The notes below the pieces were generated by a model, which saw nothing but the letters and a program-made list of their open reading frames with translations, made no database searches and was not told the origin of the DNA. The translations under genes and the position numbers were made by a program. A stretch of 30,231 nucleotides of DNA from a virus (taxonomy: Duplodnaviria > Heunggongvirae > Uroviricota > Caudoviricetes): IMG/VR virus record IMGVR_UViG_2695420421_000005, one strand, 5' to 3'. Below, in pieces: positions 1 through 30,231 of the stretch. Each line of letters opens with the position of its first letter. Positions within the stretch are counted from its first letter, which is position 1.

Positions 1-42
1 ACATAATTCCCCATTATACGCGCGTATAATGGGGAATTATGT
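1..42. repeat. Telomere resolution site-like perfect palindrome (telO/telRL type); window begins inside a probably longer palindrome
   Basis: 42-bp perfect palindrome ACATAATTCCCCATTATACGC|GCGTATAATGGGGAATTATGT centred between 21 and 22, with central CGCGCG flanked by TATAAT arms as in N15-type telomere sites; lies ~170 bp upstream of the protelomerase gene. Confidence 0.85.
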
Positions 43-212
43 GCTGATTTATAGAACAAAGTCAAGGAACAAATTTTAATGTTCTGCTATTGTGTTTTTG
101 TTTATTATCCGTTATTGTGTTCTGTTAGTTTGTGGCTAAGTTAACGCGTTATTAGTTAACTTATTCTCAAATTGTGTTACGATAATCCGAGCGGATAATC
201 AGGAGAGGAAAG
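43..212 (+). promoter_or_regulatory. tos-like regulatory region between telomere site and telN: three TATTGTGTT direct repeats (89-97, 113-121, 170-178), inverted repeat AAGTTAAC-N9-GTTAACTT (138-162), GATAATC direct repeat (181-187, 194-200), RBS AGGAGAGG (201-208)
   Basis: Repeats read directly from sequence; N15 telRL is flanked by additional repeats forming the telomerase occupancy site; assignment of function is inference. Confidence 0.4.
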
Positions 213-2120
213 ATGAGCAAAGTAAAAATCGGTGAATTAATAAACTCACTTGTTAGCGATGTTGAGTCAATAGATAACTCTGACCGTCCTCAAGGGGAAA
301 AAACAAAAAAAATAAAGGCTGTTGCATTAAAATTTAAAAATGCATTATTTAATGACAAGCGAAAGTTTAGGGGGAAAGGATTAGAAAAAAGAATTACAGC
401 CAACACATTCAATGCCTATATGAGCAGGGCCAGAAAACGGTTTGATGATAAACTTCATCATAGCTTTGAAAAAAATATACATCGCCTATCTGAAAAGTAT
501 CCTTTATATAATGAGGAGCTATTGTCATGGCTTTCTCTACCTGCTGCCGATATTCGCCAGAGAATGTCAACTTTACAGGCAAAATTAAAATTAATTCTCC
601 CTTTATCAGAAGATTTATCTAATATCAGAATTGGTGATAACAAAAATCATAATAAGTTATTAAAATTATCAAATAAATATAAAGAGTGGCAATTCGCAAT
701 TTCTGATTTAACTAGCGATAACTGGAAAGATAAGCGCGATTATTTATATAAATTACTACAGCAAGGATCTGCCTTGCTTGAGGAGTTGAATCAGCTAAAA
801 GTTAACCATGAGATTCTCTATCATCTTCAACTAAGCCCTGCCGAACGCGCATCTATCCAGCAACGATGGGCGGACGTTCTGCACAATAAGAAACGTAACG
901 TGGTGGTCATTGATTACCCTAAATATATGCAAGCTATTTACGATATTATAAATAGCCCTGCTACATTAAATAATCTAAACACTCGTTCAGGTATGGCTCC
1001 TTTGGCATTTGCACTTGCTGCATTGTCAGGAAGACGAATGATTGAGATTATGTATCAAGGTACATTTACTGTTTCTGGTAAGTATACCGTTGATTTTTTA
1101 GGCCAAGCTAAAAAAAGAACTTCTGATGATATAACCAGAAAAATATATACATTATGCGAAGCAAAAACATTTGTTTATTTAATAAATGTACTTCGCTCAT
1201 GCCCAGCAGCATCTGATTTTGATGATGTCGTTAAAGGTTATGGAGATAACGACACACGCTCTGAAAACGGACGTATTAATGCCATATTAGCAAAGGCTTT
1301 TAACCCGTGGGTTAAATCATTTTTCAAAGATGACCGCCGTGTTTATAAAGATAGTCGTGCTATTTATGCCCGTATTGCGTATGAAATGTTTTTCCGCGTA
1401 GATCCTCGTTGGAAAAACGTAGATGAGGATGTTTTCTTTATGGAAATTTTAGGCCATGACGATGAAAACACTCAATTACACTATAAGCAATTCAAGCTGG
1501 CCAACTTCTCAAAGACATGGAGGCCAAATACTGGAAACGAAAATACCAGGCTGGAAGCATTGCAGCAGCTTGATGACGAAATGCCTGGATTCGCCAGAGG
1601 AGATGCCGGGGTTCGTCTGCATAACACAGTTAAGCAGCTGGTAGAGCAGGACCCCTCTATAAAAATCACGAACAGCACTCTAAGAGCATTCAAATTTAGC
1701 CCAACAATGATTAGCCGATACCTGGAATTTGCTGCTGATGCTCTGGGGCAATTTGTTGGCGAAAATGGACAATGGCAGCTGAAAATAGATACTCCAGAAA
1801 TCGTTATGCCTGACGAAGAAGAGCTGGAAGCAATACCTGAACAGACGGATGAATTATCAGATGATGACGATCTGGATGACGACGAAATTGAGATAGAGGA
1901 AGAGGAAGAGGAAGAGGAAGAGGAAGAGAGCGTAGAAGAACAGCAACCGCCCGCGCCTTCTTCACCTGTATCTAAGCCGGTATTTAAGCCTGTGAGAAAT
2001 ATTGGTGATGGTTCATACGTTGTTGAGTTTCATTATAATGGCCAGAATTATGCTTGGTCCGGCAGTGCAAACAGCCCTATGTCAGCAATGCAGTTAGCAT
2101 GGCTGACATATTTCGGATAA
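213..2120 (+). CDS. telN: Protelomerase (telomere resolvase) TelN, 635 aa
   Basis: Translation closely resembles my recollection of N15 TelN (N-terminus MSKVKIGELIN..., internal ...NTRSGMAPLAFALAA..SGRRMIEIM... and ...RSENGRINAILAKAFNPWVKSFF... blocks, acidic C-terminal tail); RBS AGGAGAGG 5 nt upstream of ATG; adjacent telomere palindrome. Confidence 0.95.
   Translation: MSKVKIGELINSLVSDVESIDNSDRPQGEKTKKIKAVALKFKNALFNDKRKFRGKGLEKRITANTFNAYMSRARKRFDDKLHHSFEKNIHRLSEKYPLYNEELLSWLSLPAADIRQRMSTLQAKLKLILPLSEDLSNIRIGDNKNHNKLLKLSNKYKEWQFAISDLTSDNWKDKRDYLYKLLQQGSALLEELNQLKVNHEILYHLQLSPAERASIQQRWADVLHNKKRNVVVIDYPKYMQAIYDIINSPATLNNLNTRSGMAPLAFALAALSGRRMIEIMYQGTFTVSGKYTVDFLGQAKKRTSDDITRKIYTLCEAKTFVYLINVLRSCPAASDFDDVVKGYGDNDTRSENGRINAILAKAFNPWVKSFFKDDRRVYKDSRAIYARIAYEMFFRVDPRWKNVDEDVFFMEILGHDDENTQLHYKQFKLANFSKTWRPNTGNENTRLEALQQLDDEMPGFARGDAGVRLHNTVKQLVEQDPSIKITNSTLRAFKFSPTMISRYLEFAADALGQFVGENGQWQLKIDTPEIVMPDEEELEAIPEQTDELSDDDDLDDDEIEIEEEEEEEEEEESVEEQQPPAPSSPVSKPVFKPVRNIGDGSYVVEFHYNGQNYAWSGSANSPMSAMQLAWLTYFG
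1896..1925 (+). repeat. (GAGGAA)5 in-frame hexanucleotide tract encoding a poly-Glu run in the TelN acidic tail
   Basis: Five perfect tandem GAGGAA units read directly. Confidence 0.9.
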
Positions 2121-2746: not shown

Positions 2747-3048
2747 TGCTACCACCAGAGTTCCTACGCTCTATATGGCGGTAGCCCAGACGGGGGTAGG
2801 AATACCGGTAAACGAAGAAACCGGCCAGCTAAAAGCTGCCCCATCTGAGCCACCATAAATTTGGTGTACGCAGATTTTACACACAAAAAAACACGCAGGC
2901 GCGTGTTGTGCGCTTCATTTACTCGGGTTCCTACGCCCGGCTACGGGATTTACCGTAGCGGAGTAACTTTACCGTCAAAACGACGCGCACGTCAATAATT
3001 TGCAAAGGCATTTTACCCCGTGACCAGTCACGGGGACAGGTGTTTTTA
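2747..3048 (+). ncRNA. Candidate structured noncoding RNA or regulatory leader (strand and ends uncertain)
   Basis: ~300 bp without a credible ORF; several GC-rich hairpins (ACACGC-AGGC-GCGTGT 2891-2906; 7-bp stem 2940-2946/2953-2959); GTTCCTACGC repeated at 2760-2769 and 2927-2936; possible -35 TTGAAC 2714-2719 and -10 TTTAAT 2735-2740 (15-bp spacer, suboptimal); ends at a hairpin plus T-run. Confidence 0.25.
3016..3048 (+). terminator. Hairpin CCCCGTGA-CCAG-TCACGGGG followed by a T-run; possible terminator or protein-binding palindrome
   Basis: 8-bp GC-rich stem 3016-3023/3028-3035 with TTTTT at 3042-3046; the palindrome core recurs inverted at 13753-13768. Confidence 0.4.
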
Positions 3049-4140: not shown

Positions 4141-4332
4141 TTACTCCCCGTTCACCGAAAAATCACGATAGAAACGTTTCCACATACGATAAGTCTGCGC
4201 GAGTTGTTCACCACGAAACATCGCCTTCCTGGCCTTCATGTTTTCCTTGTGAGACTTTCGATCTATGAACCAAAACCATTGCTGGAACACACAAAGCAAG
4301 AGACACAAAGATAATATCCACTGATTACCCAT
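4141..4332 (-). CDS. Possible small membrane protein (63 aa) translationally coupled to repA
   Basis: ATG at 4332 overlaps the repA stop; hydrophobic ILSLCLLLCVFQQWFWFI followed by a basic tail; short, so uncertain. Confidence 0.3.
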   Translation of the reverse strand: MGNQWILSLCLLLCVFQQWFWFIDRKSHKENMKARKAMFRGEQLAQTYRMWKRFYRDFSVNGE

Positions 4333-7300
4333 AGAAAGCGCCCTGCTCTTCGTAGCTGCATGAGCTATTCCCGGTAATGTATTCTCGTAACCGCCGCAGT
4401 TCATTGCTGGACAAGTGATCCATGAACTCTGTGAGGTACAGAGATGCAAACGTCATAGCTATGCTGGTTGATGACCATGATGACATAGTGGCCAGCTCCT
4501 CACCGGAAAGCGCACTCATCGCCCAGGACTCAGGAACAGCCACCGGCAATACGGCCAAAGCCTCAGAAATTACTGAATGAGGGGCGTTTTGAACCTGCTC
4601 GTTTGTGGATCGCGTTTTATCATCCATATATATATTGAGATCCAAATCGCGATCCATTTCGATGGCTGTCTTCTCGGCTTTACGCGTTTTTAGGGTTAGG
4701 CCATCTTTCTGACGCTGAACAAGAATATCCAGCATAAATGCCGCTGATTCAGGCTCAACAAAACGCAAGGTTGGACGCTTATCGCCGTCTCTGCCGCGAC
4801 GTTTACCTGTTTTAAGGCCAAGAGAGTCGCAAATGTTTTTAAACAACGCTTCCGGCACTTTAGGCTTCCCTTTTGGCGTCATAAAACCACCAATGTGCAG
4901 AACGTTATTCAACAGGTCACGGCGTTCGGCTGTCATGAGATTATCTCGAGCGAATTTGAGACGCTCCTGAGTCGCCTCGCCGGTCATAGTCTCAGGGTTG
5001 ATACCGCAGTCGATAAAGTACTGCCGGAGAGTTGCTGATTTAAGCGCATAGAAACCGCGCGCCCCGACTTCAACAGTAGGAGTAGCTTTTACCTTGTGAT
5101 CGATTATTCCAGGGAATTTAGTTTTAAAGACATCATCAGCCTGCTCGCGAGTCATCGCGGTCACTACAAAATATTGCCACTGTCCCGCCTGACGGTATGC
5201 GTAGGTAAAATTGATGGCTGCTTCTTCCCGGTCGTAACGACGAGCTGTTACCTCATCTAAAAGCATTGTTTCATAGCGGCGAACTTTGTCTCGAGCACCA
5301 TCGAAATAGAATTTCAGTGTGCCTTCTTCAACCGGTAGTTTCAGTTCGTTTTCAATATCCCAGCGGACAAGTTTTGCCTGTTCTTCAAGCGTCAGCGCGC
5401 GTTTTTTTAGCAGTTCTTCACGCTCTGATTCTTGTGGAGTTTCTGTATTGAGGTGCAGATCCAGTGTCTGTTCCCACACAATATCCCGCGCTTCTTTACG
5501 CAGATCTTTACCGATATCATTCGCAGCATAATCGGTGCCCAGCGGCGATACCTTATAACCGTCGCTGTGCATGATGCAGATCATGTTGCTGGCGTAGTCG
5601 TTACGCGCAGTCGCTTCAATTGCGGCTGCTTTAATTTTCATCCTGGTAAAGTCGGTATTGGCCACCCCCATTGATATACGGTCGCCATCGAAAATGACAT
5701 CCGTCAGTTCACCGTTCATACCTGCGGTAGCAAGCAATGCCTGGGCGAATGCTCGTTCTATTTTTTGCGGGTCAGTTTCACGTTTTGCACGAGCTTTATC
5801 AAAGCCGATAATAAATTCTTTTGCTGTACGGTCGCGGCGTAGCATTTGCACTGCGTCGCTGGGTACAACTTCACCACAGAACATGCCGAAATGACGGTCA
5901 AAATGTTTTTGCTCAATCGACACGCCGGATGAAATAGACGGGCTATAAATCAGGCCGTCGTATTTTTTGACCATCTTTTTCGGTTGATTGGTAAATGCTT
6001 CAACTTCTGGCTCTGGTTTGTTTTTCTGGTTTACACACAGAAATTTCTTACCAGGAAAATGCATTCTCAGGGTGGCTGTCACATCTTCTGCAAAGGTGGA
6101 GCTGTCGGTGGCCAACATGATTTTTTCGCCATCCGATACAGCTTTCACCACCTCGGTCATGATGCGATCTTTTTCTGTATAAAAAACCCGGATTGGCTCA
6201 CCTGTTTCGCGGTTGCGAACATCAACAGGTAATTCAATTACGTGGATCTGCAGCCATGCCGGTAAACCTAGTTCTTCACGGCGTTTCATAGCCAGTTCAG
6301 CCAGGTCAACCAGCAGATCGTTCGCATCAGCATCCACCATGATTGGGTGTTGTTCCGTTCTGGCCAGCGCGTCAATTAGCGTATTGAATACAGCCACCGG
6401 GTTTTCCATAGCCCGACCGGAAAGAACGGCACGTAGCCCTTGTGTGGCCTCGTCAAAGCCAAAATAGTCGTGCTGGCGCATCAACGGTTGCCAGCAGTTT
6501 TTAACAATCGAGTTTATGCAGATGGTCAGTTTACTGGCGTATGGAGCCATTTCCTGATAGCCAGGGTCCTGATAGTGCAGGATATCGGCTTTTACACCTT
6601 TTCCTTCAGTCATCATTTCCCACAGGCCACCAATAAGGGAAACACGGTGAGCTACAGAGATACCGCGTTCTGAGCTATGCATTAACGGTCGTAACAATCC
6701 AGTAGATTTGCCGGAACCCATACCAGCACGAACGATGACGATCCCCTGTAGTGATTGCACGTACTTCAGGACGTCATCGGTCATTACCGAAGTTTCAAAA
6801 CGCTTATAGGTGATATGTTGAGGGCGTTTATTGGGATCAGTTATGCGTTCGCTGAAAGAGCGCGGAGCCTGGGCAATACGGCACTTTTTATTCAGGCGAC
6901 GGGCAATGTGGTCTTTTACCGTAGCGCGATAGATATTTTCCAGCCCCATTTCACGCAGAACGATGCAGAACATGTTAAACAAATCTGACGGACTGTTAGG
7001 AACCGGACAGGTTAGCATGCCAATATCCACCGCTCTCAGCAGCTCTTTGGCAAAAGTACGACGGTTATCCCGCTTAATTGTCTTCAGGCGGTTGAGCGTC
7101 AGAGATAGCAAATCAGTGCCGGTTTTCAGGCGGTTTGCTGTTGCAAATAGTTGACGTGCTGTTTCACGAAGTCCACGTAGTTTGTGCAGGTCGTTGAAGT
7201 CACTGCACTCCATTTGCGGATCGTCTTCAAAAGTTGGATAGACGCAGCGGACATCGTTGAATTTCGATAAGATTTCATAGCCAGTCCGCAGGCCGGTATT

Positions 7301-8320
7301 CCCTTTTCCTTCTGTGGCTGATTTCCGGTCATTATCCAGTGCGCAGGTGATTTTTGCCGCCGGGTACATGTTTACCAGTTGTTCCACAACATGAACCATG
7401 TTGTTAGCGGATACAGCGACAACCACAGCGTCAAAGCGTTTATCTTTTTTCGTGGCAAGCCAGATGGATGCACCAGTAGCAAAACCTTCTGTAACAGCGA
7501 TGTTTTGCGCCCCTTTCAGCTCACCGATAACAAAGCAGGCACCGACGAAATCGCCGCTGGTTACTGCGCTGGTCTGGTATTTCCCACCTTGTTTGTCGAT
7601 TCGCTGCCAACCCACAATACGACCATCGTAACGACCGTCCAGGTGAGCCAGAGGGATAGCCATATATGTGGTTGGCCCCCGGTTCCATTTCGCACTGTCG
7701 TGACTGGTCACGCGACGCACATCACATGAACTAAAAACGTCACGAATACCTTTTTTAATCGCATATGGCCATGAGCCGTCTTCTGCAGGAGCATGTTCCC
7801 ACGCGCTGTGGAATGCCAGCCATCCCAGCAAACGTTCATGGTCCATTTGGTTGTTTTTCAGGTCATTAATTCGTTTTTGTTCTTCACGGCGACGACGTGC
7901 TTCGGCCTGACGTTTTATTCTTGCCCGTTCTTCTTCCGGTTGTGCGACCACGGTCGCATTATTCCGTTGTTGCTCACGGCGATATTCAGAAAACAGGAAG
8001 GAGAAACCGCTCCATGAGCCAGCATCGCTGCCTTTATGGACGAAGTTAATGAACGGGTAATCAATCCCTTTGCTGTGTTCCAGCCGGGAGTAAATTTCTA
8101 CGCGTCCTTTGAGGCTCTTTTCGAGAGCTTCTGGAGATGTTTTATTGTATGAAGAGTAACGCTCAACACCCCCGCGAGGGTTGAGTTGGATGTTGTCGGA
8201 ACAGGCAGACCAGTTGATACCAGCCATCTGTGCCAGCTCGGTTAGTTCATCCCGTGCTGCTTCAATTAGCGAGAACGGATCGCTGCCAAAGCGATCCGCA
8301 TAGAAATCGTTTAATGTCAT
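4325..8320 (-). CDS. repA: Replication protein RepA (primase-helicase), 1331 aa
   Basis: Size and position match N15 RepA (~1320 aa); Walker A motif GMGSGKST in the helicase region; sits between the telN side and the cB immunity region as in N15. Confidence 0.93.
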   Translation of the reverse strand: MTLNDFYADRFGSDPFSLIEAARDELTELAQMAGINWSACSDNIQLNPRGGVERYSSYNKTSPEALEKSLKGRVEIYSRLEHSKGIDYPFINFVHKGSDAGSWSGFSFLFSEYRREQQRNNATVVAQPEEERARIKRQAEARRRREEQKRINDLKNNQMDHERLLGWLAFHSAWEHAPAEDGSWPYAIKKGIRDVFSSCDVRRVTSHDSAKWNRGPTTYMAIPLAHLDGRYDGRIVGWQRIDKQGGKYQTSAVTSGDFVGACFVIGELKGAQNIAVTEGFATGASIWLATKKDKRFDAVVVAVSANNMVHVVEQLVNMYPAAKITCALDNDRKSATEGKGNTGLRTGYEILSKFNDVRCVYPTFEDDPQMECSDFNDLHKLRGLRETARQLFATANRLKTGTDLLSLTLNRLKTIKRDNRRTFAKELLRAVDIGMLTCPVPNSPSDLFNMFCIVLREMGLENIYRATVKDHIARRLNKKCRIAQAPRSFSERITDPNKRPQHITYKRFETSVMTDDVLKYVQSLQGIVIVRAGMGSGKSTGLLRPLMHSSERGISVAHRVSLIGGLWEMMTEGKGVKADILHYQDPGYQEMAPYASKLTICINSIVKNCWQPLMRQHDYFGFDEATQGLRAVLSGRAMENPVAVFNTLIDALARTEQHPIMVDADANDLLVDLAELAMKRREELGLPAWLQIHVIELPVDVRNRETGEPIRVFYTEKDRIMTEVVKAVSDGEKIMLATDSSTFAEDVTATLRMHFPGKKFLCVNQKNKPEPEVEAFTNQPKKMVKKYDGLIYSPSISSGVSIEQKHFDRHFGMFCGEVVPSDAVQMLRRDRTAKEFIIGFDKARAKRETDPQKIERAFAQALLATAGMNGELTDVIFDGDRISMGVANTDFTRMKIKAAAIEATARNDYASNMICIMHSDGYKVSPLGTDYAANDIGKDLRKEARDIVWEQTLDLHLNTETPQESEREELLKKRALTLEEQAKLVRWDIENELKLPVEEGTLKFYFDGARDKVRRYETMLLDEVTARRYDREEAAINFTYAYRQAGQWQYFVVTAMTREQADDVFKTKFPGIIDHKVKATPTVEVGARGFYALKSATLRQYFIDCGINPETMTGEATQERLKFARDNLMTAERRDLLNNVLHIGGFMTPKGKPKVPEALFKNICDSLGLKTGKRRGRDGDKRPTLRFVEPESAAFMLDILVQRQKDGLTLKTRKAEKTAIEMDRDLDLNIYMDDKTRSTNEQVQNAPHSVISEALAVLPVAVPESWAMSALSGEELATMSSWSSTSIAMTFASLYLTEFMDHLSSNELRRLREYITGNSSCSYEEQGAFYG
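7943..7958. repeat. sopC-like centromere-type inverted repeat TGCGACC-AC-GGTCGCA (copy 1, inside repA coding sequence)
   Basis: 7-bp inverted arms with 2-bp spacer, same architecture as the F sopC core TGGGACC-AC-GGTCCCA; five copies in this window. Confidence 0.5.
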
Positions 8321-8565: not shown

Positions 8566-9162
8566 TCATCTACCCTCAACCATGAATGATTTGATCGTTC
8601 CGACTATTTGGTGAACAAATTCAAGATCGCTTTTCCTGAAGATGGCGCGTTGTGAATTTGTTCCGTCCAGATAGTAATTTTCATCATCAAAACGGGCCAG
8701 GCGCTGGATGGTGATATTTCCTGCAGTATCACGAACCAGAACATCCTCGCCGGGGACCAGTTCCAGCGCAGAATCGACCAGGAGAAAATCGCCAGGCTGA
8801 TAGTTTCCCTGCGCCAGATTGCTGATAGTTAACGCATAAACAGTATTGCGCTGGCTGATGAATGGCAGGAATCGCTCAGTATTTGGAACCTGTCCTGGCT
8901 TCCACTCTTCATCAGGTCCACTTTCAGTTGTGCCAATAACAGGAATGCGATCAGGGTCATATTCTGTCCCATACAGCACCCAATGCACTGGCTTGCGTAA
9001 GCATTTAGCCAGGGCAATACCTATCTCCAGTGACGGCATTACGTCGCCACGTTCTAAGTTTTGGACGCCTGCAATAGAGATATCGACAGCCTCAGCAACT
9101 TCTCGCAACGTCAGCTTCATCTCTAAACGGCGTGCTTTCAGTCGTTCGCCTCGTGTTTTCAT
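8566..9162 (-). CDS. cB: Prophage repressor CB (CI-like: N-terminal HTH plus C-terminal S24/LexA-like domain), 198 aa
   Basis: N-terminal HTH (LTLREVAEAVDISIAGVQNLERG) and C-terminal peptidase S24-like fold region; divergent from cro across an operator-containing spacer. Confidence 0.9.
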   Translation of the reverse strand: MKTRGERLKARRLEMKLTLREVAEAVDISIAGVQNLERGDVMPSLEIGIALAKCLRKPVHWVLYGTEYDPDRIPVIGTTESGPDEEWKPGQVPNTERFLPFISQRNTVYALTISNLAQGNYQPGDFLLVDSALELVPGEDVLVRDTAGNITIQRLARFDDENYYLDGTNSQRAIFRKSDLEFVHQIVGTIKSFMVEGR

Positions 9163-9226: not shown

Positions 9227-9253
9227 TTGTTGTTTATTGTTTATAATAACAAC

Positions 9254-9475
9254 ATGAAACCAGAAGAACTTATTCGCCACTTTGGCAGTGTAGAAAAAGC
9301 AGCGGCAGGGGTAGGTGTAACACCCGGAGCTGTTTACCAATGGTTAACCGCTGGAGAGATTCCTTCATTGCGGCAAAGCGATATTGAAGTTCGTACTGCT
9401 TATAAGCTGAAGAGTGACTTTACAACTCGGCGGGTAAAGCAGTCGATTAAGGAGAGTCGTAAGCGTGGAGCTTGA
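9254..9475 (+). CDS. cro: Cro-like HTH regulator (73 aa from the ATG at 9254)
   Basis: Small basic HTH protein (HFGSVEKAAAGVGVTPGAVYQWL) divergent from the repressor gene; the ORF-track start at 9227 is TTG, the internal ATG is more plausible. Confidence 0.8.
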   Translation: MKPEELIRHFGSVEKAAAGVGVTPGAVYQWLTAGEIPSLRQSDIEVRTAYKLKSDFTTRRVKQSIKESRKRGA

Positions 9476-10175
9476 GTATATACGCAGCTGCGTCTCTACG
9501 GCATTGGCTGATGTTCATTATCGCCAGCGTGGCATTCTGGAGGTCCAGCTTGAGCAGATGCGTCTCGGTAGATCAGGACGGTTTAACAATAAACCAGTCC
9601 GGTCAATCAGTGTGGGGGATGATAACTCATACGAAGTGTCCGTTCCTGCTGAGCCGGTTAGATTCCACCAGGGGAAAACATTTAAACAATCATCAATGTT
9701 GCTCACTGATATTGATTTTCAGAGCGCCAGCTGGCGCAGGGCTATTGGTCAGTTGAATAACGAGGAATCAGCCTGGCTTTATTATTGCTACGGATGCAAG
9801 CCTGATTACAACAATGATGTGATTGTTTGTCAGTGGTTATGGCTTGATTTTCTGGTTGCTCATTCGGGGGGCGGCTTTAAAAAAATGAAGGCCTCCACGA
9901 AAAAAGCCATGCGGAAATTGATTTATTACGCGGCACAGCAGGTTAAATCAGAACTTACGTGTGCTGAGGCAGTTGATGAGAGAGAACAGGACAGGCATCT
10001 GAGTCTTCTACTGAATATATCTATTGATAGCTGGAGACAAGATTATAAAGAACGCTGGCTTTTAATTAAGTCGCGATGTCTGAGCTTAAATCGAACTGCA
10101 TTATTAAATGCGGCGGAGAAGCGCAGTGAAATCATCAAACGCCATCGGGCAGGAAGTGCCATTCTGCCTTTGTAA
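9465..10175 (+). CDS. Hypothetical protein (236 aa), positional analogue of the Q antiterminator in a cB-cro-Q arrangement
   Basis: GTG start overlapping the cro end with AAGGAGAG upstream; product assignment is by position only, no motif confirmed. Confidence 0.65.
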   Translation: MELEYIRSCVSTALADVHYRQRGILEVQLEQMRLGRSGRFNNKPVRSISVGDDNSYEVSVPAEPVRFHQGKTFKQSSMLLTDIDFQSASWRRAIGQLNNEESAWLYYCYGCKPDYNNDVIVCQWLWLDFLVAHSGGGFKKMKASTKKAMRKLIYYAAQQVKSELTCAEAVDEREQDRHLSLLLNISIDSWRQDYKERWLLIKSRCLSLNRTALLNAAEKRSEIIKRHRAGSAILPL

Positions 10176-25082: not shown

Positions 25083-25584
25083 TCTCCCGCATATTGCCAG
25101 CATGGCTTTTAATGAGCCGCTGATGCTTGAACCCGCCTATGCGCGGGTTTTCTTTTGTGCGCTTGCAGGCCAGCTTGGGATCAGCCGCCTGACGGATGCA
25201 GTATCCGGCGACAGCCTGACTGCCGGAGAGGCACCCGCGGCGCTGGCGTTATCCGGTGATGATGACGGACCACGACAGGCCCGCAGTTATCAGGTCATGA
25301 ACGGCATCGCCGTGCTGCCGGTGTCCGGTACGCTGGTCAGTCGGACGCGGGCGCTGCAGCCGTATTCGGGAATGACTGGTTACAACGGCATTATCGCCCG
25401 TCTGCAACAGGCTGCCAGTGACCCGATGGTGGACGGCATTCTGCTCGATATGGATACGCCAGGCGGAATGGTGGCGGGGGCATTTGACTGCGCTGACATC
25501 ATCGCCCGTGTGCGTGACATAAAGCCGGTATGGGCGCTGGCAGTCGCTGGACATATGCTGGCGGTAAGCAATGGAAAGGGCTGA
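25063..25584 (+). pseudogene. C: Truncated head protease/scaffold gene C (lambda-like): first ~160 codons then an unrelated 13-codon tail and stop
   Basis: GTG start and MTAELRNLPHIASMAFNEPLMLEPAYARVFFCALAGQLGIS... match lambda gpC up to ...[11 protein letters not shown]; sequence then switches to the 3' end of an endolysin gene. Confidence 0.85.
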
Positions 25585-28845: not shown

Positions 28846-29028
28846 ATGATCATGCTGATTCTCGCGCCTCTGGTGGGCGTGCTGGGTGCGCTTTTGCTGG
28901 CGTATGGTGCCTGGCTGATTTATCCCCCGGCGGGTTTTGTTGTTGCCGGGGCGCTGTGCCTGTTCTGGTCGTGGCTGGTGGCGCGATATCTCGACCGTAC
29001 ACGGCAGTCTGTCGGCGGAGGTAAATAG
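28846..29028 (+). CDS. Small hydrophobic protein (60 aa) between terL and portal
   Basis: Two hydrophobic segments; TGAGG upstream of ATG. Confidence 0.55.
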
Positions 29029-30184
29029 TGTTCTTTTCGGGATTATTTCAACGAAAAAGCGATGTGCCGGTGACCACGCCAGCAGAACTGCTGATGCTAT
29101 CGGGCTGTCATACGACACCTATACCGGAAAGCGGATCAGTAGCCAGCGGGCCATGCGCCTGACGGCGGTCTATTCTTGCGTCAGGGTGCTGGCAGAGTCT
29201 GTTGGTATGCTGCCCTGCAGTCTCTACAAAATCAGCGGTACCCTGAAAACACGGGCGGTGGATGAACGACTGCATAAGTTGGTTTCGGCAAAACCTAATG
29301 GCTACATGACACCGCAGGAATTCTGGGAGCTGGTTATTGTCTGCCTGTGTCTACGGGGGAATTTTTACGCCTACAAGGTAAAGGCACTGGGAGAAGTGGT
29401 GGAGCTTCTTCCGATAGATCCGGGCTGTGTGGAACCGAAGCTGAACAGCCAGTGGCAGCCGGTTTATCAGGTGACGTTTCCGGATGGTTCCGTGGATGTG
29501 TTGACCCAGAATGAAATCTGGCATGTGCGCACCCTGACGCTGGATGGACTTGTCGGGCTGAATCCCATTGCGTATGCGCGTGAGGCCATTTCACTGGCAG
29601 CGGCAACCGAGGAGCACGGTGCCAGGTTGTTTAGTAATGGTGCGGTGACATCCGGTGTGTTGCGTACGGAACAAAAGCTCACGCCGGATGCTTACGAGCG
29701 TCTGAAGAAAGATTTTGAGGAGTGTCACACGGGGCTTGGCAATGCTCACCGCCCGATGATTCTGGAAATGGGGCTGGACTGGAAGTCGATGGCGCTGAAC
29801 GCCGAGGACAGTCAGTTCCTGGAAACCCGCAAGTTTCAGCTGGAAGAAATCTGTCGTCTGTTCCGGGTGCCGTTGCACATGGTGCAGAACACCGATCGCG
29901 CCACCTTCAACAATATCGAAGAGCTGGGGCTGGGATTTATCAACTATTCACTGGTGCCGTATCTGACCCGCATCGAACAGCGGATCAACACCGGACTGGT
30001 ACGAAAAAGTAAGCAGGGCGTTTATTACGCCAAATTTAACGCCGGGGCGTTACTGCGCGGGGATATGAAGTCCCGTTTTGAAGCCTACGCCACCGGGATC
30101 AACTGGGGAATTTACTCTTCCAATGACTGCCGCGACCTGGAAGATATGAATCCGCGTCCCGGTGGTGTAATGCCGATCAGTTAA
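29028..30184 (+). CDS. Portal protein (HK97 family) with apparent +1/-1 frame change near 29090 (possible pseudogene or sequencing error)
   Basis: GGAGG 6 nt upstream of GTG 29028 opens a frame reading [22 protein letters not shown] that stops at 29160; the long portal-like ORF (ADAIGLSYDTYTGKRISSQRAMRLTAVYSCVRV...) is in another frame with no in-frame start until the Met in AMRL. Confidence 0.7.
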
Positions 30185-30231
30185 GGATCAGTTGACCGAT
30201 CCAGTGGCTGTGTAAGAATCCGGAAACGCTC

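Follow-up and report, generated by a model that had tools for sequence, protein, structure and literature searches.

We conclude with high confidence that the first 212 bases of the DNA analysed here (30,231 bp; the window, below) are the telomere region, and bases 213–2120 the protelomerase gene telN, of an N15-like telomere phage of E. coli (Ravinvirus, PhiR46_1/YDC107_1 type). This is shown by homology, by gene content and by the way in which the assemblies of relatives end, while the mechanism that would operate here is drawn from the biochemistry of N15 and phiKO2. A sequence-only reading of the window had already placed an N15-type telomere site beside a protelomerase gene on a linear plasmid-prophage backbone, and the protein domains, the identity of TelN to its N15 counterpart, the collinearity with known phages and the neighbouring genes all bear this out. 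The element is of a known type; public databases already contain both the phage group and near-identical sequences, so that the window is, in this sense, ordinary.

The site itself was described correctly from the letters alone. Bases 1–42 (ACATAATTCCCCATTATACGC|GCGTATAATGGGGAATTATGT) are their own reverse complement, with the dyad axis between bases 21 and 22, CGCGCG at the centre and TATAAT in the arms (Table 1). The longest other perfect palindrome in the window has 9-bp arms, arms of 21 bp would be expected by chance about 30,000 × 4^-21 times (roughly 1e-8, by our own arithmetic), and the single-stranded form folds with −17.5 kcal/mol (z = −8.1 against shuffles). The same 42 bp are found, letter for letter, in an IMG/VR contig (L017) and in the plasmid pZ1323HEC0355-3. 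Comparison with the N15 and phiKO2 sites showed that the telO core is identical. The resemblance of the flank to the outer arm of the N15 site, another part of the earlier reading, also holds: GTGCTGAT, at 41–48, is common to N15 telRL, and the right arm matches telRL at 23–25 of 28 positions. As regards the outer L3/R3 symmetry, an R3-type half-site is present on the telN side (35–48), and the left side lies beyond the window edge. A telO-core palindrome directly upstream of a protelomerase gene is the arrangement that typifies an N15-type telRL, and it is what the window contains. The record of N15 annotates its telomere site as cut at the centre. TelK and TelN reportedly make cuts with a 6-bp stagger. 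By homology, the protelomerase would cut at 19–24 here, and the self-complementary overhangs would fold into the hairpin turn; in telomere phages, staggered cuts are followed by fold-back (PMC10612081). PMC12624138 describes the R3/L3 motifs of N15, gives 56 bp for telRL, and reports degenerate L1/L2/R1/R2 copies and a natural target of roughly 310 bp.

Table 1. Features of the telomere region and of the N15-type genes in the window.
Feature	Position	Strand	Basis or remark
Telomere-resolution site, perfect 42-bp palindrome	1–42	strandless	Homology to annotated N15 telRL and phiKO2 telRL
telR arm (telRL junction) or fold-back copy of telL	1–21		
telO-type core CCATTATACGCGCGTATAATGG	11–32	strandless	Same as N15 core; PhiR46_1 annotates this stretch as 'telL site' / 'telR site'
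Central CGCGCG	19–24	strandless	Probable position of 6-bp staggered protelomerase cuts, by homology
telL arm	22–42		Half of palindrome 1–42
R3-type outer half-site AATTATGTGCTGAT	35–48	+	N15 R3: TATTGTGTGCTGAT; telN side only
Two GAACA motifs (54–58, 67–71)	53–72	+	GAACA-containing block aligned in N15 and Enterobacter phage MStein
Repeat unit r1, TGTTCTGCTATTGTGTT (ATTGTGTT at 89–96)	80–96	+	Mirrors GAACAC...GAACAT units on telR side of nearest relative
Repeat unit r2 (ATTGTGTT at 114–121)	105–127	+	Sequence
Inverted repeat TAAGTTAAC (137–145)-N9-GTTAACTTA (155–163)	137–163	strandless	9/9 in window
Repeat r3 (ATTGTGTT at 171–178) overlapping TGtTACGAT (175–183)	171–183	+	Extended -10-like element
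Near-palindrome GATAATCCG-AG-CGGATAATC, 20 bp	181–200	strandless	Between -10-like element and Shine–Dalgarno
telN Shine–Dalgarno AGGAGAGG	201–208	+	Sequence
telN, protelomerase (telomere resolvase), 635 aa	213–2120	+	Pfam domains, 2V6E alignment, N15 TelN identity
C4-family antisense RNA	2774–2860	-	RNA match adjacent to telN
isrK-like RNA	2886–2959	-	RNA match
repA-type replication protein, 1331 aa, Toprim and origin-binding helicase region	4325–8320	-	Domains
CB/CI-like repressor (HTH and S24)	8566–9162	-	immB-type switch
Cro	9227–9475	+	immB-type switch
Q antiterminator	9465–10175	+	immB-type switch

The telN gene starts, as had been stated, 170 nt past the palindrome, with an ATG at 213 that follows the Shine–Dalgarno sequence. 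Its product matches Pfam PF22853, PF20849, PF16684 and PF20818, all far above the gathering thresholds, and carries all four TelK domains (TelK_N, muzzle, catalytic and stirrup); a search of NCBIfam for the same protein gave no model match. The alignment with the TelK crystal chain 2V6E runs end to end over 536 residues (E = 6e-295), and the identity is 78% to N15 TelN and 79% to phiKO2 TelK, so the claim of a clear relationship to N15 TelN is well founded. This identity is unevenly spread, with 92% in the stirrup domain, 69% in the muzzle and 56% in the C-terminal tail, all relative to N15; past residue 536, an acidic linker of poly-Glu type leads into a small C-terminal domain. Y424, in an LHYKQF motif identical to that of N15, aligns with Tyr425 of N15 TelN and TelK, and R275, K300 and H415 lie within motifs identical or near-identical to those of N15 (SGRRMIEIM, GQAKKR and ILGHDD). 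Y424 is thus the predicted catalytic Tyr; in N15, TelN(Y425F) serves as the catalytic mutant (PMC12624138).

The 191-nt spacer from tel to the ATG is collinear with those of N15, Enterobacter phage MStein and phiKO2, and its TTGTGTT blocks are conserved in the alignment. Three direct repeats had been seen in this spacer. Three units do share the 8-mer ATTGTGTT, at 89, 114 and 171, and this 8-mer occurs nowhere else in the window on either strand; however, only two (at 88 and 113) are exact copies of TATTGTGTT, the third (170–178) being AATTGTGTT. Three copies of ATTGTGTT are unremarkable for the whole window (20 of 100 shuffles reach that number), and three copies of TTGTGTT within the 170-nt spacer were reached by none of 20,000 composition-matched shuffles. 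The positions of the repeats are conserved, and their sequence fits the degenerate R-type repeats reported for N15; at 113–127, TATTGTGTTCTGTTA agrees with the N15 R3 motif TATTGTGTGCTGATA at 13 of 15 positions (counted by eye). Degenerate copies of the outer motif, of the kind that N15 has as L1/L2 and R1/R2, are therefore present in the flanks, as the three ATTGTGTT units here and as mirror-oriented GAACAC units on the telR side of the nearest relative, where 209 nt hold six GAACA and five AACAC, all in the same orientation.

The two other spacer elements noticed from the letters were also real but had to be redescribed. The GTTAAC inverted repeat (137–163) is perfect in the window and extends to 14/17 over 129–171, but its perfect form is not conserved, since all 10 close E. 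coli-group relatives that were aligned have 8/9 (GTTATC); at the same alignment columns, N15 has a different inverted repeat (GTGACGA...TCGTCAC). The element is possibly a -35/operator region. As a conserved operator it was rejected, because the perfect form is confined to the window and a near-identical IMG/VR contig and the repeat is missing from some N15-like metagenome contigs. The GATAATC direct repeat is present at 181 and 194, and its copies are the two halves of a 20-bp near-palindrome (181–200), the symmetry of which is kept in two relatives by a paired C>A / G>T change. This near-palindrome is specific to the lineage of the window and has no counterpart in N15. It was also considered as a 'pseudo-telO', on the grounds of a 14/20 match to telO, and discarded, since three other places in the window equal this by chance.

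The best-conserved block of the spacer, TTGTGTTAYGAT, is common to the group of the window, N15/MStein and phiKO2, and holds the 171–183 element, which is a candidate for the telN promoter. A consensus promoter scan of 1–212 found no canonical sigma-70 -35/-10 pair on the plus strand, so that the conserved TGtTAYGAT block is what this proposal is based on. On the minus strand, a promoter-like site (65->36) was set aside for lack of conservation of its -35 element in N15.

Beyond telN, the window contains the neighbour set of N15 (C4/CA RNA, RepA, CB, Cro, Q and Nu1), in other words an N15-type replicon and immunity region, in the gene order of PhiR46_1, and telN, repA, cB, cro and Q are intact ORFs. 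Bases 2774–2959 are the N15 immA-type anti-immunity RNA region that adjoins telN (the N15 CA RNA system figures in the reference list of PMC12042878). Relatives carry the repA gene, the replicon of the linear plasmid, under the annotation 'primase' or 'plasmid replication protein, CyRepA1 family'. The sopAB genes are outside the window; in the nearest relative, the sopA/sopB position immediately left of the palindrome is occupied by ORFs of 388 and 321 aa, by analogy with annotated relatives, in which sopA (E. coli plasmid records) or ParA/ParB (PhiR46_1) is annotated there.

An uncharacterised, divergent member of the telomere-phage group, as the sequence-only reading had suggested, this is not: the DNA is about 97–98% identical to that of phages already named in GenBank (one of them has annotated telL/telR, and one is placed in Ravinvirus), and it recurs in dozens of plasmid records. 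Bases 11–25541 are collinear with PhiR46_1 (PV340565.1) in three blocks at 95.6–97.6% nucleotide identity, and the first 2.2 kb are 98% identical to both PhiR46_1 and the Ravinvirus YDC107_1 (CP025712.1), with TelN at 97.3–97.5%. PhiR46_1 carries telL and telR annotations at its ends and sopAB at the other end from telN; it and YDC107_1 differ from the window by one base per palindrome arm (GGGGAATT in the window and GGGAAATT there). The nearest relative is the IMG/VR contig UViG_2648501186_000001, which differs at 3 of 6377 bases (99.95%, by an exact-pattern scan); the same scan of IMG/VR gave no match that was the window itself. Among 5426 complete E. coli genomes, 18 carry the element, as do 32 PLSDB plasmids.

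The palindrome had been thought probably to extend to the left of the window, and in the nearest relative it does not. There, the bases to the left of the 42 bp (...CATAACGAA) are asymmetric, AACGAA replacing ATCAGC, and the perfect palindrome therefore ends at 42 bp. A 54-bp palindrome exists only in a second allele group, type A (PhiR46_1 and 19KM1803, with one mismatch in YDC107), whereas the 42-bp form, type B, is that of the nearest relative, pZ1323HEC0355-3, MARGA_3, 23GD35035 and AH01; the sopA-side sequence left of the palindrome reads ...GAACATAACGAA. On sequence comparison, the 42-bp limit in the nearest relative is a polymorphism of the telR arm.

A search for hairpin-end signatures had been proposed as a check, and the assemblies of relatives, taken as a proxy, show such signatures. 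In the long-read assemblies YDC107_1, LR883007 and G749, the sequence turns back on itself precisely at the centre of the palindrome; the YDC107 chromosome record does so on the telR side, and the PEC011 record stops precisely at that centre. IMG/VR contigs run past it by 18, 21, 34, 51 and 1759 nt, with perfect symmetry, and an independent contig, 97.8% identical, starts at the same base as the window. The molecule from which the window derives would likewise have hairpin ends.

A question then arises as to what bases 1–21 represent, because their perfect symmetry makes them fit a telR arm and a fold-back of telL alike. One explanation, to which we give about an even chance, is that they are the telL arm reread, through either a closed hairpin or a replicated telL-telL' junction, in which case base 22 would be the true end of the molecule and the assembly would have created the 42-bp palindrome. 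This is favoured by the overshoots of 18, 34, 51 and 1759 nt, which are 100% symmetric and include bases unlike any telR flank (L029, L033 and L035), by the fold-back of the long-read assemblies at that point, and by the single base at which the window and the independent contig both begin. However, the nearest relative and the four other type B relatives have bases 1–21 as a genuine telR arm too, and an overshoot of exactly 21 nt is also expected from a graph branch at the end of a shared palindrome. Another explanation, which we hold to be somewhat short of evenly probable, is that bases 1–42 are the intact telRL junction of a circular or phage-form genome, with the sopA side on the left as in N15 virion DNA, and that the window was cut there by chance. 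Since several relatives are deposited as 'circular' with sopA-telRL-telN joined, such a junction is equally compatible; the nearest relative has sopB, sopA, the 42-bp palindrome and telN contiguous, and the same join is present in five E. coli plasmid records. Two independent contigs with an identical start, however, indicate a systematic break rather than a random cut, and the palindrome, being shared, may itself have produced the 'circular' joins of short-read or hybrid assemblies as graph artefacts. A start at the outer edge of the palindrome would most simply be an assembly break at the telomere, caused either by reading through the hairpin or by a branch in the assembly graph at the point where the telR flank and the folded-back telL flank part.

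It is extremely improbable that the palindrome serves as a common regulatory hairpin (an intrinsic terminator or an operator upstream of telN, for example) and not as a recombination site: a terminator scan does flag 1–42 plus the downstream GCTGATTTAT as terminator-like, but the T-run is weak, the linear form has nothing upstream to terminate, the core is identical to the experimentally defined telomere resolution sites of N15 and phiKO2, and the assemblies of relatives end or fold back at its centre. A further alternative stems from the right part of the window. The virion module, complete in relatives, is incomplete there, with Nu1, A, W and B present and the N15-like head gene Nu3/C cut at 25,541; from 25,543, the window is a foreign segment, from a chromosomal SfII/SfIV-like prophage. 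The tel/telN region might on this account be a defective remnant in chromosomal prophage DNA rather than part of an autonomous linear plasmid-prophage, a reading that we regard as very unlikely. The join shows no homology at the junction and was absent from the 5426 complete E. coli genomes and from IMG/VR; a related contig fuses the same two phages at another point, within their common lysis genes, which is typical of misassembly; all complete relatives are plasmid-type records of 45–47 kb, and of 35 matching places 33 are on plasmids; and the main N15-type ORFs are intact. The part beyond 25.5 kb is most likely an assembly chimera, and the window as assembled is therefore not an intact phage genome. 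Its right end was also examined as an IS boundary; it coincides instead with a terminator-hairpin loop, and the hairpin belongs to a common deletion derivative of an SfII-like prophage.

By analogy with N15 and phiKO2, a TelN dimer would bind the palindrome via the telO core and the outer ATTATGTGCTGAT half-site, make staggered cuts around CGCGCG through Tyr424, and reseal each half on itself. Replication driven by RepA would produce a duplicated telL-telL', a perfect palindrome by construction, which the same TelN reaction would then resolve. The mirror-oriented GAACA/TTGTGTT repeats are most likely accessory TelN-binding repeats equivalent to R1/R2 of N15; they would help to keep TelN bound and to protect the hairpin, much as N15 TelN stays bound and shields the ends from SbcCD (PMC12624138). 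These repeats overlap the probable telN promoter, an arrangement that would allow autoregulation.

Compared with known telomere systems, N15 has the same 22-bp telO core and outer ...TGTGCTGAT motif, a tel-to-telN distance of 193 nt (191 in the window), three aligned TTGTGTT-type repeats, a conserved TTGTGTTACGAT block, the same repA, cB-cro-Q and CA RNA neighbours, and the same TelN domains and catalytic Tyr. It differs in that its telRL is a 56-bp imperfect palindrome, whereas that of the window is 42 bp and perfect, with GGGGAATTA in the window and GGACTATTG in N15 between the core and the outer motif, and in that the structural genes of the phage group of the window are lambda-like (bioRxiv 10.1101/2025.09.12.675607). 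The TelK of phiKO2 (PDB 2V6E) is the best structural template for TelN, and phiKO2 shares both the telO core and the ATTATGTGCTGAT half-site; its spacer, however, is only loosely alignable, its host belongs to another genus (Klebsiella), and its telRL is annotated as 50 bp. The pal site of PY54 (Yersinia), which lies beside tel on a linear plasmid prophage, has the form of a perfect 42-bp palindrome too, centred on TACGCGCGTA (PMC3540006, PMC10612081), but PY54 Tel has no more than 43% identity across 83% of its length and a comparison of the two sites gave no DNA-level match, and the common length of 42 bp is a coincidence and not arm homology. ResT (Borrelia) and TelA (Agrobacterium) belong to the same catalytic family (PF16684) and carry out the same reaction on replicated hairpin telomeres, but they serve chromosomal or plasmid replicons of non-phage origin, do not have the muzzle and stirrup of TelK, and act on unrelated targets.

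Telomere phages of the N15 kind that carry lambda-like structural genes have already been described in Escherichia and Shigella, and the window matters little as a discovery. Its use lies in annotation and in quality control: a contig that begins or folds back at the palindrome marks a hairpin-ended linear replicon, and replicons of this type are routinely misdeposited, whether as 'circular plasmids', as inverted duplications or even within a chromosome record. It is possible, though less likely than not, that the type B telR arm has lost the N15-type outer ATCAGC block, so that a replicated telR-telR' would be only a 42-bp palindrome without the canonical L3/R3 on either side; separately, and with the same reservation, the 181–200 near-palindrome could be a telN operator. 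If the former is true, the TelN of type B phages would need a target shorter than or different from the 56-bp site of N15, or the flanking GAACA array would substitute for the missing motifs. The natural 42-bp and 54-bp telomere alleles offer a cheap test of the substrate needs of TelN-type enzymes, needs that are relevant to the TelN-based production of closed linear DNA.

The palindrome observed beside a protelomerase gene is confirmed, and its interpretation as a telomere resolution site with its enzyme is supported. The first 42 bases of the window, ACATAATTCCCCATTATACGC followed by GCGTATAATGGGGAATTATGT, are identical to their own reverse complement, so the sequence-only reading was right to describe a perfect 42-bp palindrome with a CGCGCG centre and TATAAT arms. 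A search of all 30,231 bases found that the runner-up perfect palindrome has arms of only 9 bp. Folded as single-stranded DNA, positions 1–42 reach −17.5 kcal/mol (z = −8.1 against shuffles). The annotated telRL sites of N15 (cut at its centre) and phiKO2 were fetched for comparison, and the 22-bp core, CCATTATACGCGCGTATAATGG, proved identical in the window and in both phages. GCTGAT follows directly after position 42; the claimed likeness of this flank to the outer arm of N15 holds, the right arm matching the N15 arms at 23–25 of 28 positions, the outer ...TGTGCTGAT included. In N15, telRL consists of a 56-bp core carrying the L3/R3 motifs, and its flanks contain at least two degenerate copies (L1/L2 and R1/R2), giving a natural target of about 310 bp (PMC12624138). 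Elsewhere, single-base deviations from the otherwise invariant core occur at the dyad of the fold-back assembly of pG749_3 (ACGTGCGT) and in one arm of MARGA_3 (ATTTTACGC); these may be consensus errors at the hairpin turn-around or true variants.

The product of telN carries the four Pfam domains of which TelK-type protelomerases consist (TelK_N, muzzle, ResT-TelK catalytic and stirrup; E-values 1e-25 to 1e-50), and 536 of its residues align with the crystallised TelK chain 2V6E (E = 6e-295). In the comparison proposed in the sequence-only reading, tblastn identities are 78.9% to phiKO2 TelK, 77.3% to N15 TelN and 43% to PY54 Tel, with 97.5% to PhiR46_1, 97.3% to YDC107_1 and about 30% to proteins of Vibrio and Halomonas telomere phages. 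Pairwise, identity to N15 TelN is 78% over the whole protein, being highest in the stirrup (92%), followed by the catalytic (86%) and N-terminal (85%) domains, the muzzle (69%) and the C-terminal tail (56%). The conserved motifs hold R275, K300, H415 and Y424, the last aligning with Tyr425 of N15 and TelK; a Y425F catalytic mutant of N15 TelN is in use (PMC12624138). The protein is clearly related to N15 TelN, as had been said, but in view of these identities "divergent" was an overstatement, and the window TelN is, from its sequence, a close member of the N15/phiKO2 clade. Residues ~535–575 (window 1813–1935) form a strongly acidic linker with about 12 consecutive Glu residues specified by GAAGAG repeats; two of the three bases that distinguish the window from its nearest IMG/VR relative lie in this linker (1899–1900). 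The C-terminal ~50 residues are a separate conserved block, also found in N15.

The element itself is of an already known kind. Its first 2.2 kb are 98% identical to Escherichia phages PhiR46_1 and YDC107_1, the latter classified as Ravinvirus, and positions 11–25541 are collinear with PhiR46_1 in three blocks at 95.6–97.6% identity. In the linear record of PhiR46_1 (host ECOR13), the first 22 bases are annotated as "telL site" and the last 22 as "telR site". The isolate-genome IMG/VR contig UViG_2648501186_000001 has 3 mismatches to the window over an overlap of 6377 bases. Since identity to named phages is about 97–98%, the suggestion of an uncharacterised member does not stand, and the species is effectively already known. 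Among 5426 complete E. coli genomes, 18 contain the first 420 bases, and of the 35 places matched 33 are on plasmids; the first 2.2 kb are present in 32 PLSDB plasmids (E. albertii and Shigella sonnei records among them), all typed as non-mobilisable. The window also has the N15 neighbour set: a C4-family antisense RNA, an isrK-like RNA, a 1331-aa RepA, a CB/CI-like repressor, Cro, Q and Nu1. The two RNAs constitute the anti-immunity RNA region of the N15 immA type. N15-like phage-plasmids with lambda-like structural cassettes were described from Escherichia and Shigella in a 2025 survey (bioRxiv 10.1101/2025.09.12.675607), and phage-plasmid catalogues likewise cover them.

Features of the window and their coordinates
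Feature	Position	Strand	Details
Palindrome centre CGCGCG	19–24
Near-palindrome, 20 bp	181–200		GATAATCCG-AG-CGGATAATC; after the -10-like block and before the telN Shine-Dalgarno
telN ORF	213–2120		ATG at 213 after AGGAGAGG; 635 codons
C4 antisense RNA	2774–2860	−	Rfam, 73.6 bits; just downstream of telN
isrK-like RNA	2886–2959	−	Rfam, 62.8 bits; just downstream of telN
Second portal gene, truncated	28937–30184
Region of the portal-gene end and the intrinsic-terminator hairpin	30168–30231		CCGGAAAC-GCTCACTT-GTTTCCGG + T7; after the portal gene; L018 5160–5215

The spacer between dyad centre and telN start was aligned for 13 elements, given as the window, ten E. coli-group relatives, Enterobacter phage MStein, N15 and phiKO2, and is collinear along its whole length (191 nt in the window, 193 nt in N15). 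Invariant columns fall into five clusters: the telO half, the R3-type half-site, a block with GAACA immediately beyond it, three TTGTGTT units and, the strongest, TTGTGTTAYGAT at 172–183. Of the three direct repeats TATTGTGTT that had been noticed, three copies of ATTGTGTT do occur (at 89, 114 and 171, with no other copy in the window), but the third lacks the exact 9-mer. Three ATTGTGTT copies are not exceptional for the window as a whole; three TTGTGTT units within the 170-nt, 33% GC spacer were reached in none of 20,000 composition-matched shuffles. Because unit r2, TATTGTGTTCTGTTA (113–127), shares 13 of 15 positions with the N15 R3 motif TATTGTGTGCTGATA and the N15 flanks carry degenerate copies (PMC12624138), the repeats are best read as this lineage's putative accessory repeats of the R1/R2 type. 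The telR flank of the nearest relative contains GAACA six times and AACAC five times in 209 nt, with the complements of neither; the telL flank has GTGTT three times, TGTTC twice and two GAACA near the site, and mirror pairs with the telR flank were found.

The third repeat overlaps an extended -10-like element, TGtTACGAT. Since a consensus scan of 1–212 found no canonical telN promoter on the plus strand, it is by inference only that we propose this element as a candidate. On the minus strand, the promoter-like sequence TTGACT-18-CATAAT (36–65) points into the palindrome and is probably due to chance, its -35 not being kept in N15. The GTTAAC inverted repeat of the sequence-only reading (TAAGTTAAC at 137–145, GTTAACTTA at 155–163) exists but has little weight: it is perfect only in the window and the near-identical IMG/VR contig, all ten close E. 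coli-group relatives aligned having GTTATC (8/9). In N15 and MStein these columns hold an inverted repeat of unrelated sequence; some N15-like contigs from metagenomes lack one altogether. Both copies of GATAATC (181 and 194) are likewise real, although they are better described as the 20-bp near-palindrome, which is confined to this E. coli lineage and does not occur in N15 or phiKO2. In AH01 and PEC011 it reads GATAATCAG-AG-CTGATAATC, a paired C>A/G>T change that keeps the dyad; this being a single evolutionary event, it gives only a hint of a possible operator or stem. Its resemblance to telO (14/20) is at chance level.

Public assemblies of relatives behave, by proxy, as expected of hairpin-ended molecules. 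An inverted second copy of telN lies across the palindrome in YDC107_1, LR883007 plasmid 2 and pG749_3; in the first two, symmetry is perfect over 291–368 nt before long-read errors set in. The "chromosome" record of E. coli YDC107 (NZ_CP025707.1) contains at 12–20 kb an inverted duplication, tail fibre-sopB-sopA-palindrome-sopA-sopB-tail fibre, which is the linear plasmid's telR end in folded-back form, put in the wrong place by the chromosome assembly. The record pPEC011-4 terminates exactly at the dyad centre, and others start 27–115 nt away. Four IMG/VR contigs overrun the centre by 18, 21, 34 and 51 nt and one has a 1759-nt inverted duplication, with 100% symmetry in every case; the overshoots of 34 and 51 nt copy the telL flank and match no telR flank. 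One of these contigs, IMGVR_UViG_2734482591_000008, is 97.8% identical to the window and so comes from a different strain, yet it starts at precisely the window's first base.

The right part of the window has another origin. The N15-like DNA breaks off at 25,541 inside the head gene Nu3/C, and from 25,543 a chromosomal SfII/SfIV-type prophage continues from mid-rrrD lysozyme through Rz, HNH, TerS and TerL to a truncated portal. No homology was found at the join (context 25481–25580), and no counterpart of it in 5426 complete E. coli genomes or IMG/VR. The contig just named, whose identity to the window is 97.8% over the N15-like and 100% over the SfII-like sequence, stops 4 nt short of the window's end and joins the same two phages elsewhere, within shared lysis genes. 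For these reasons the join most likely arose by misassembly or scaffolding, and the fusion of plasmid-prophage and chromosomal prophage is a recurrent assembly chimera. The last base of the window falls in the loop of the terminator hairpin; among four IMG/VR contigs with the truncated-portal junction, three stop within a few tens of nucleotides of this hairpin and one runs past it.

Site, spacer, enzyme and replicon are homologous to those of N15 and phiKO2, and relatives fold back or end at the dyad. From the biochemistry of N15 and TelK, a TelN dimer would bind the core and outer half-sites, cut both strands in a staggered manner around CGCGCG via Tyr424 and reseal each half as a hairpin (PMC10612081; PMC2847241). 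Bidirectional replication would be primed by RepA, after which TelN would resolve the duplicated telomeres (PMC2847241). N15 TelN stays on the hairpin product and shields it against SbcCD, and bound TelN would similarly protect the ends here (PMC12624138). The flanking repeats might recruit extra TelN and tie end occupancy to telN transcription.

A further question is whether the palindrome extends to the left of the window, as had been thought probable. The telR arm is visible in eight E. coli-group relatives and has two alleles. In type A (PhiR46_1, 19KM1803 and YDC107), ...ATCAGCACATAATT... gives a 54-bp palindrome, whereas in type B (the near-identical IMG/VR contig, pZ1323HEC0355-3, MARGA_3, 23GD35035 and AH01), ...AACG(A/G)AACATAATT... 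stops the symmetry at 42 bp. By record, ATCAGCAC occurs in the L003 end, L010 and L012, and AACG(A/G)AAC in L017 (that near-identical contig, 2820–2846), L011, L008, L009 and L014. Because the closest relative is type B, an extension does not necessarily follow. Should the window strain, too, be type B, then the telR flank and the telL flank in its folded-back form part at base 1, precisely the point at which a graph assembler would break a contig. Bases 1–21 may be either the telR arm or telL read a second time, and we keep both readings. The alleles differ by four substitutions clustered within a 6-nt block in elements otherwise ~97–98% identical. This natural polymorphism between 42-bp and 54-bp arms is the sole mildly new angle, and it bears on the target requirements of TelN.
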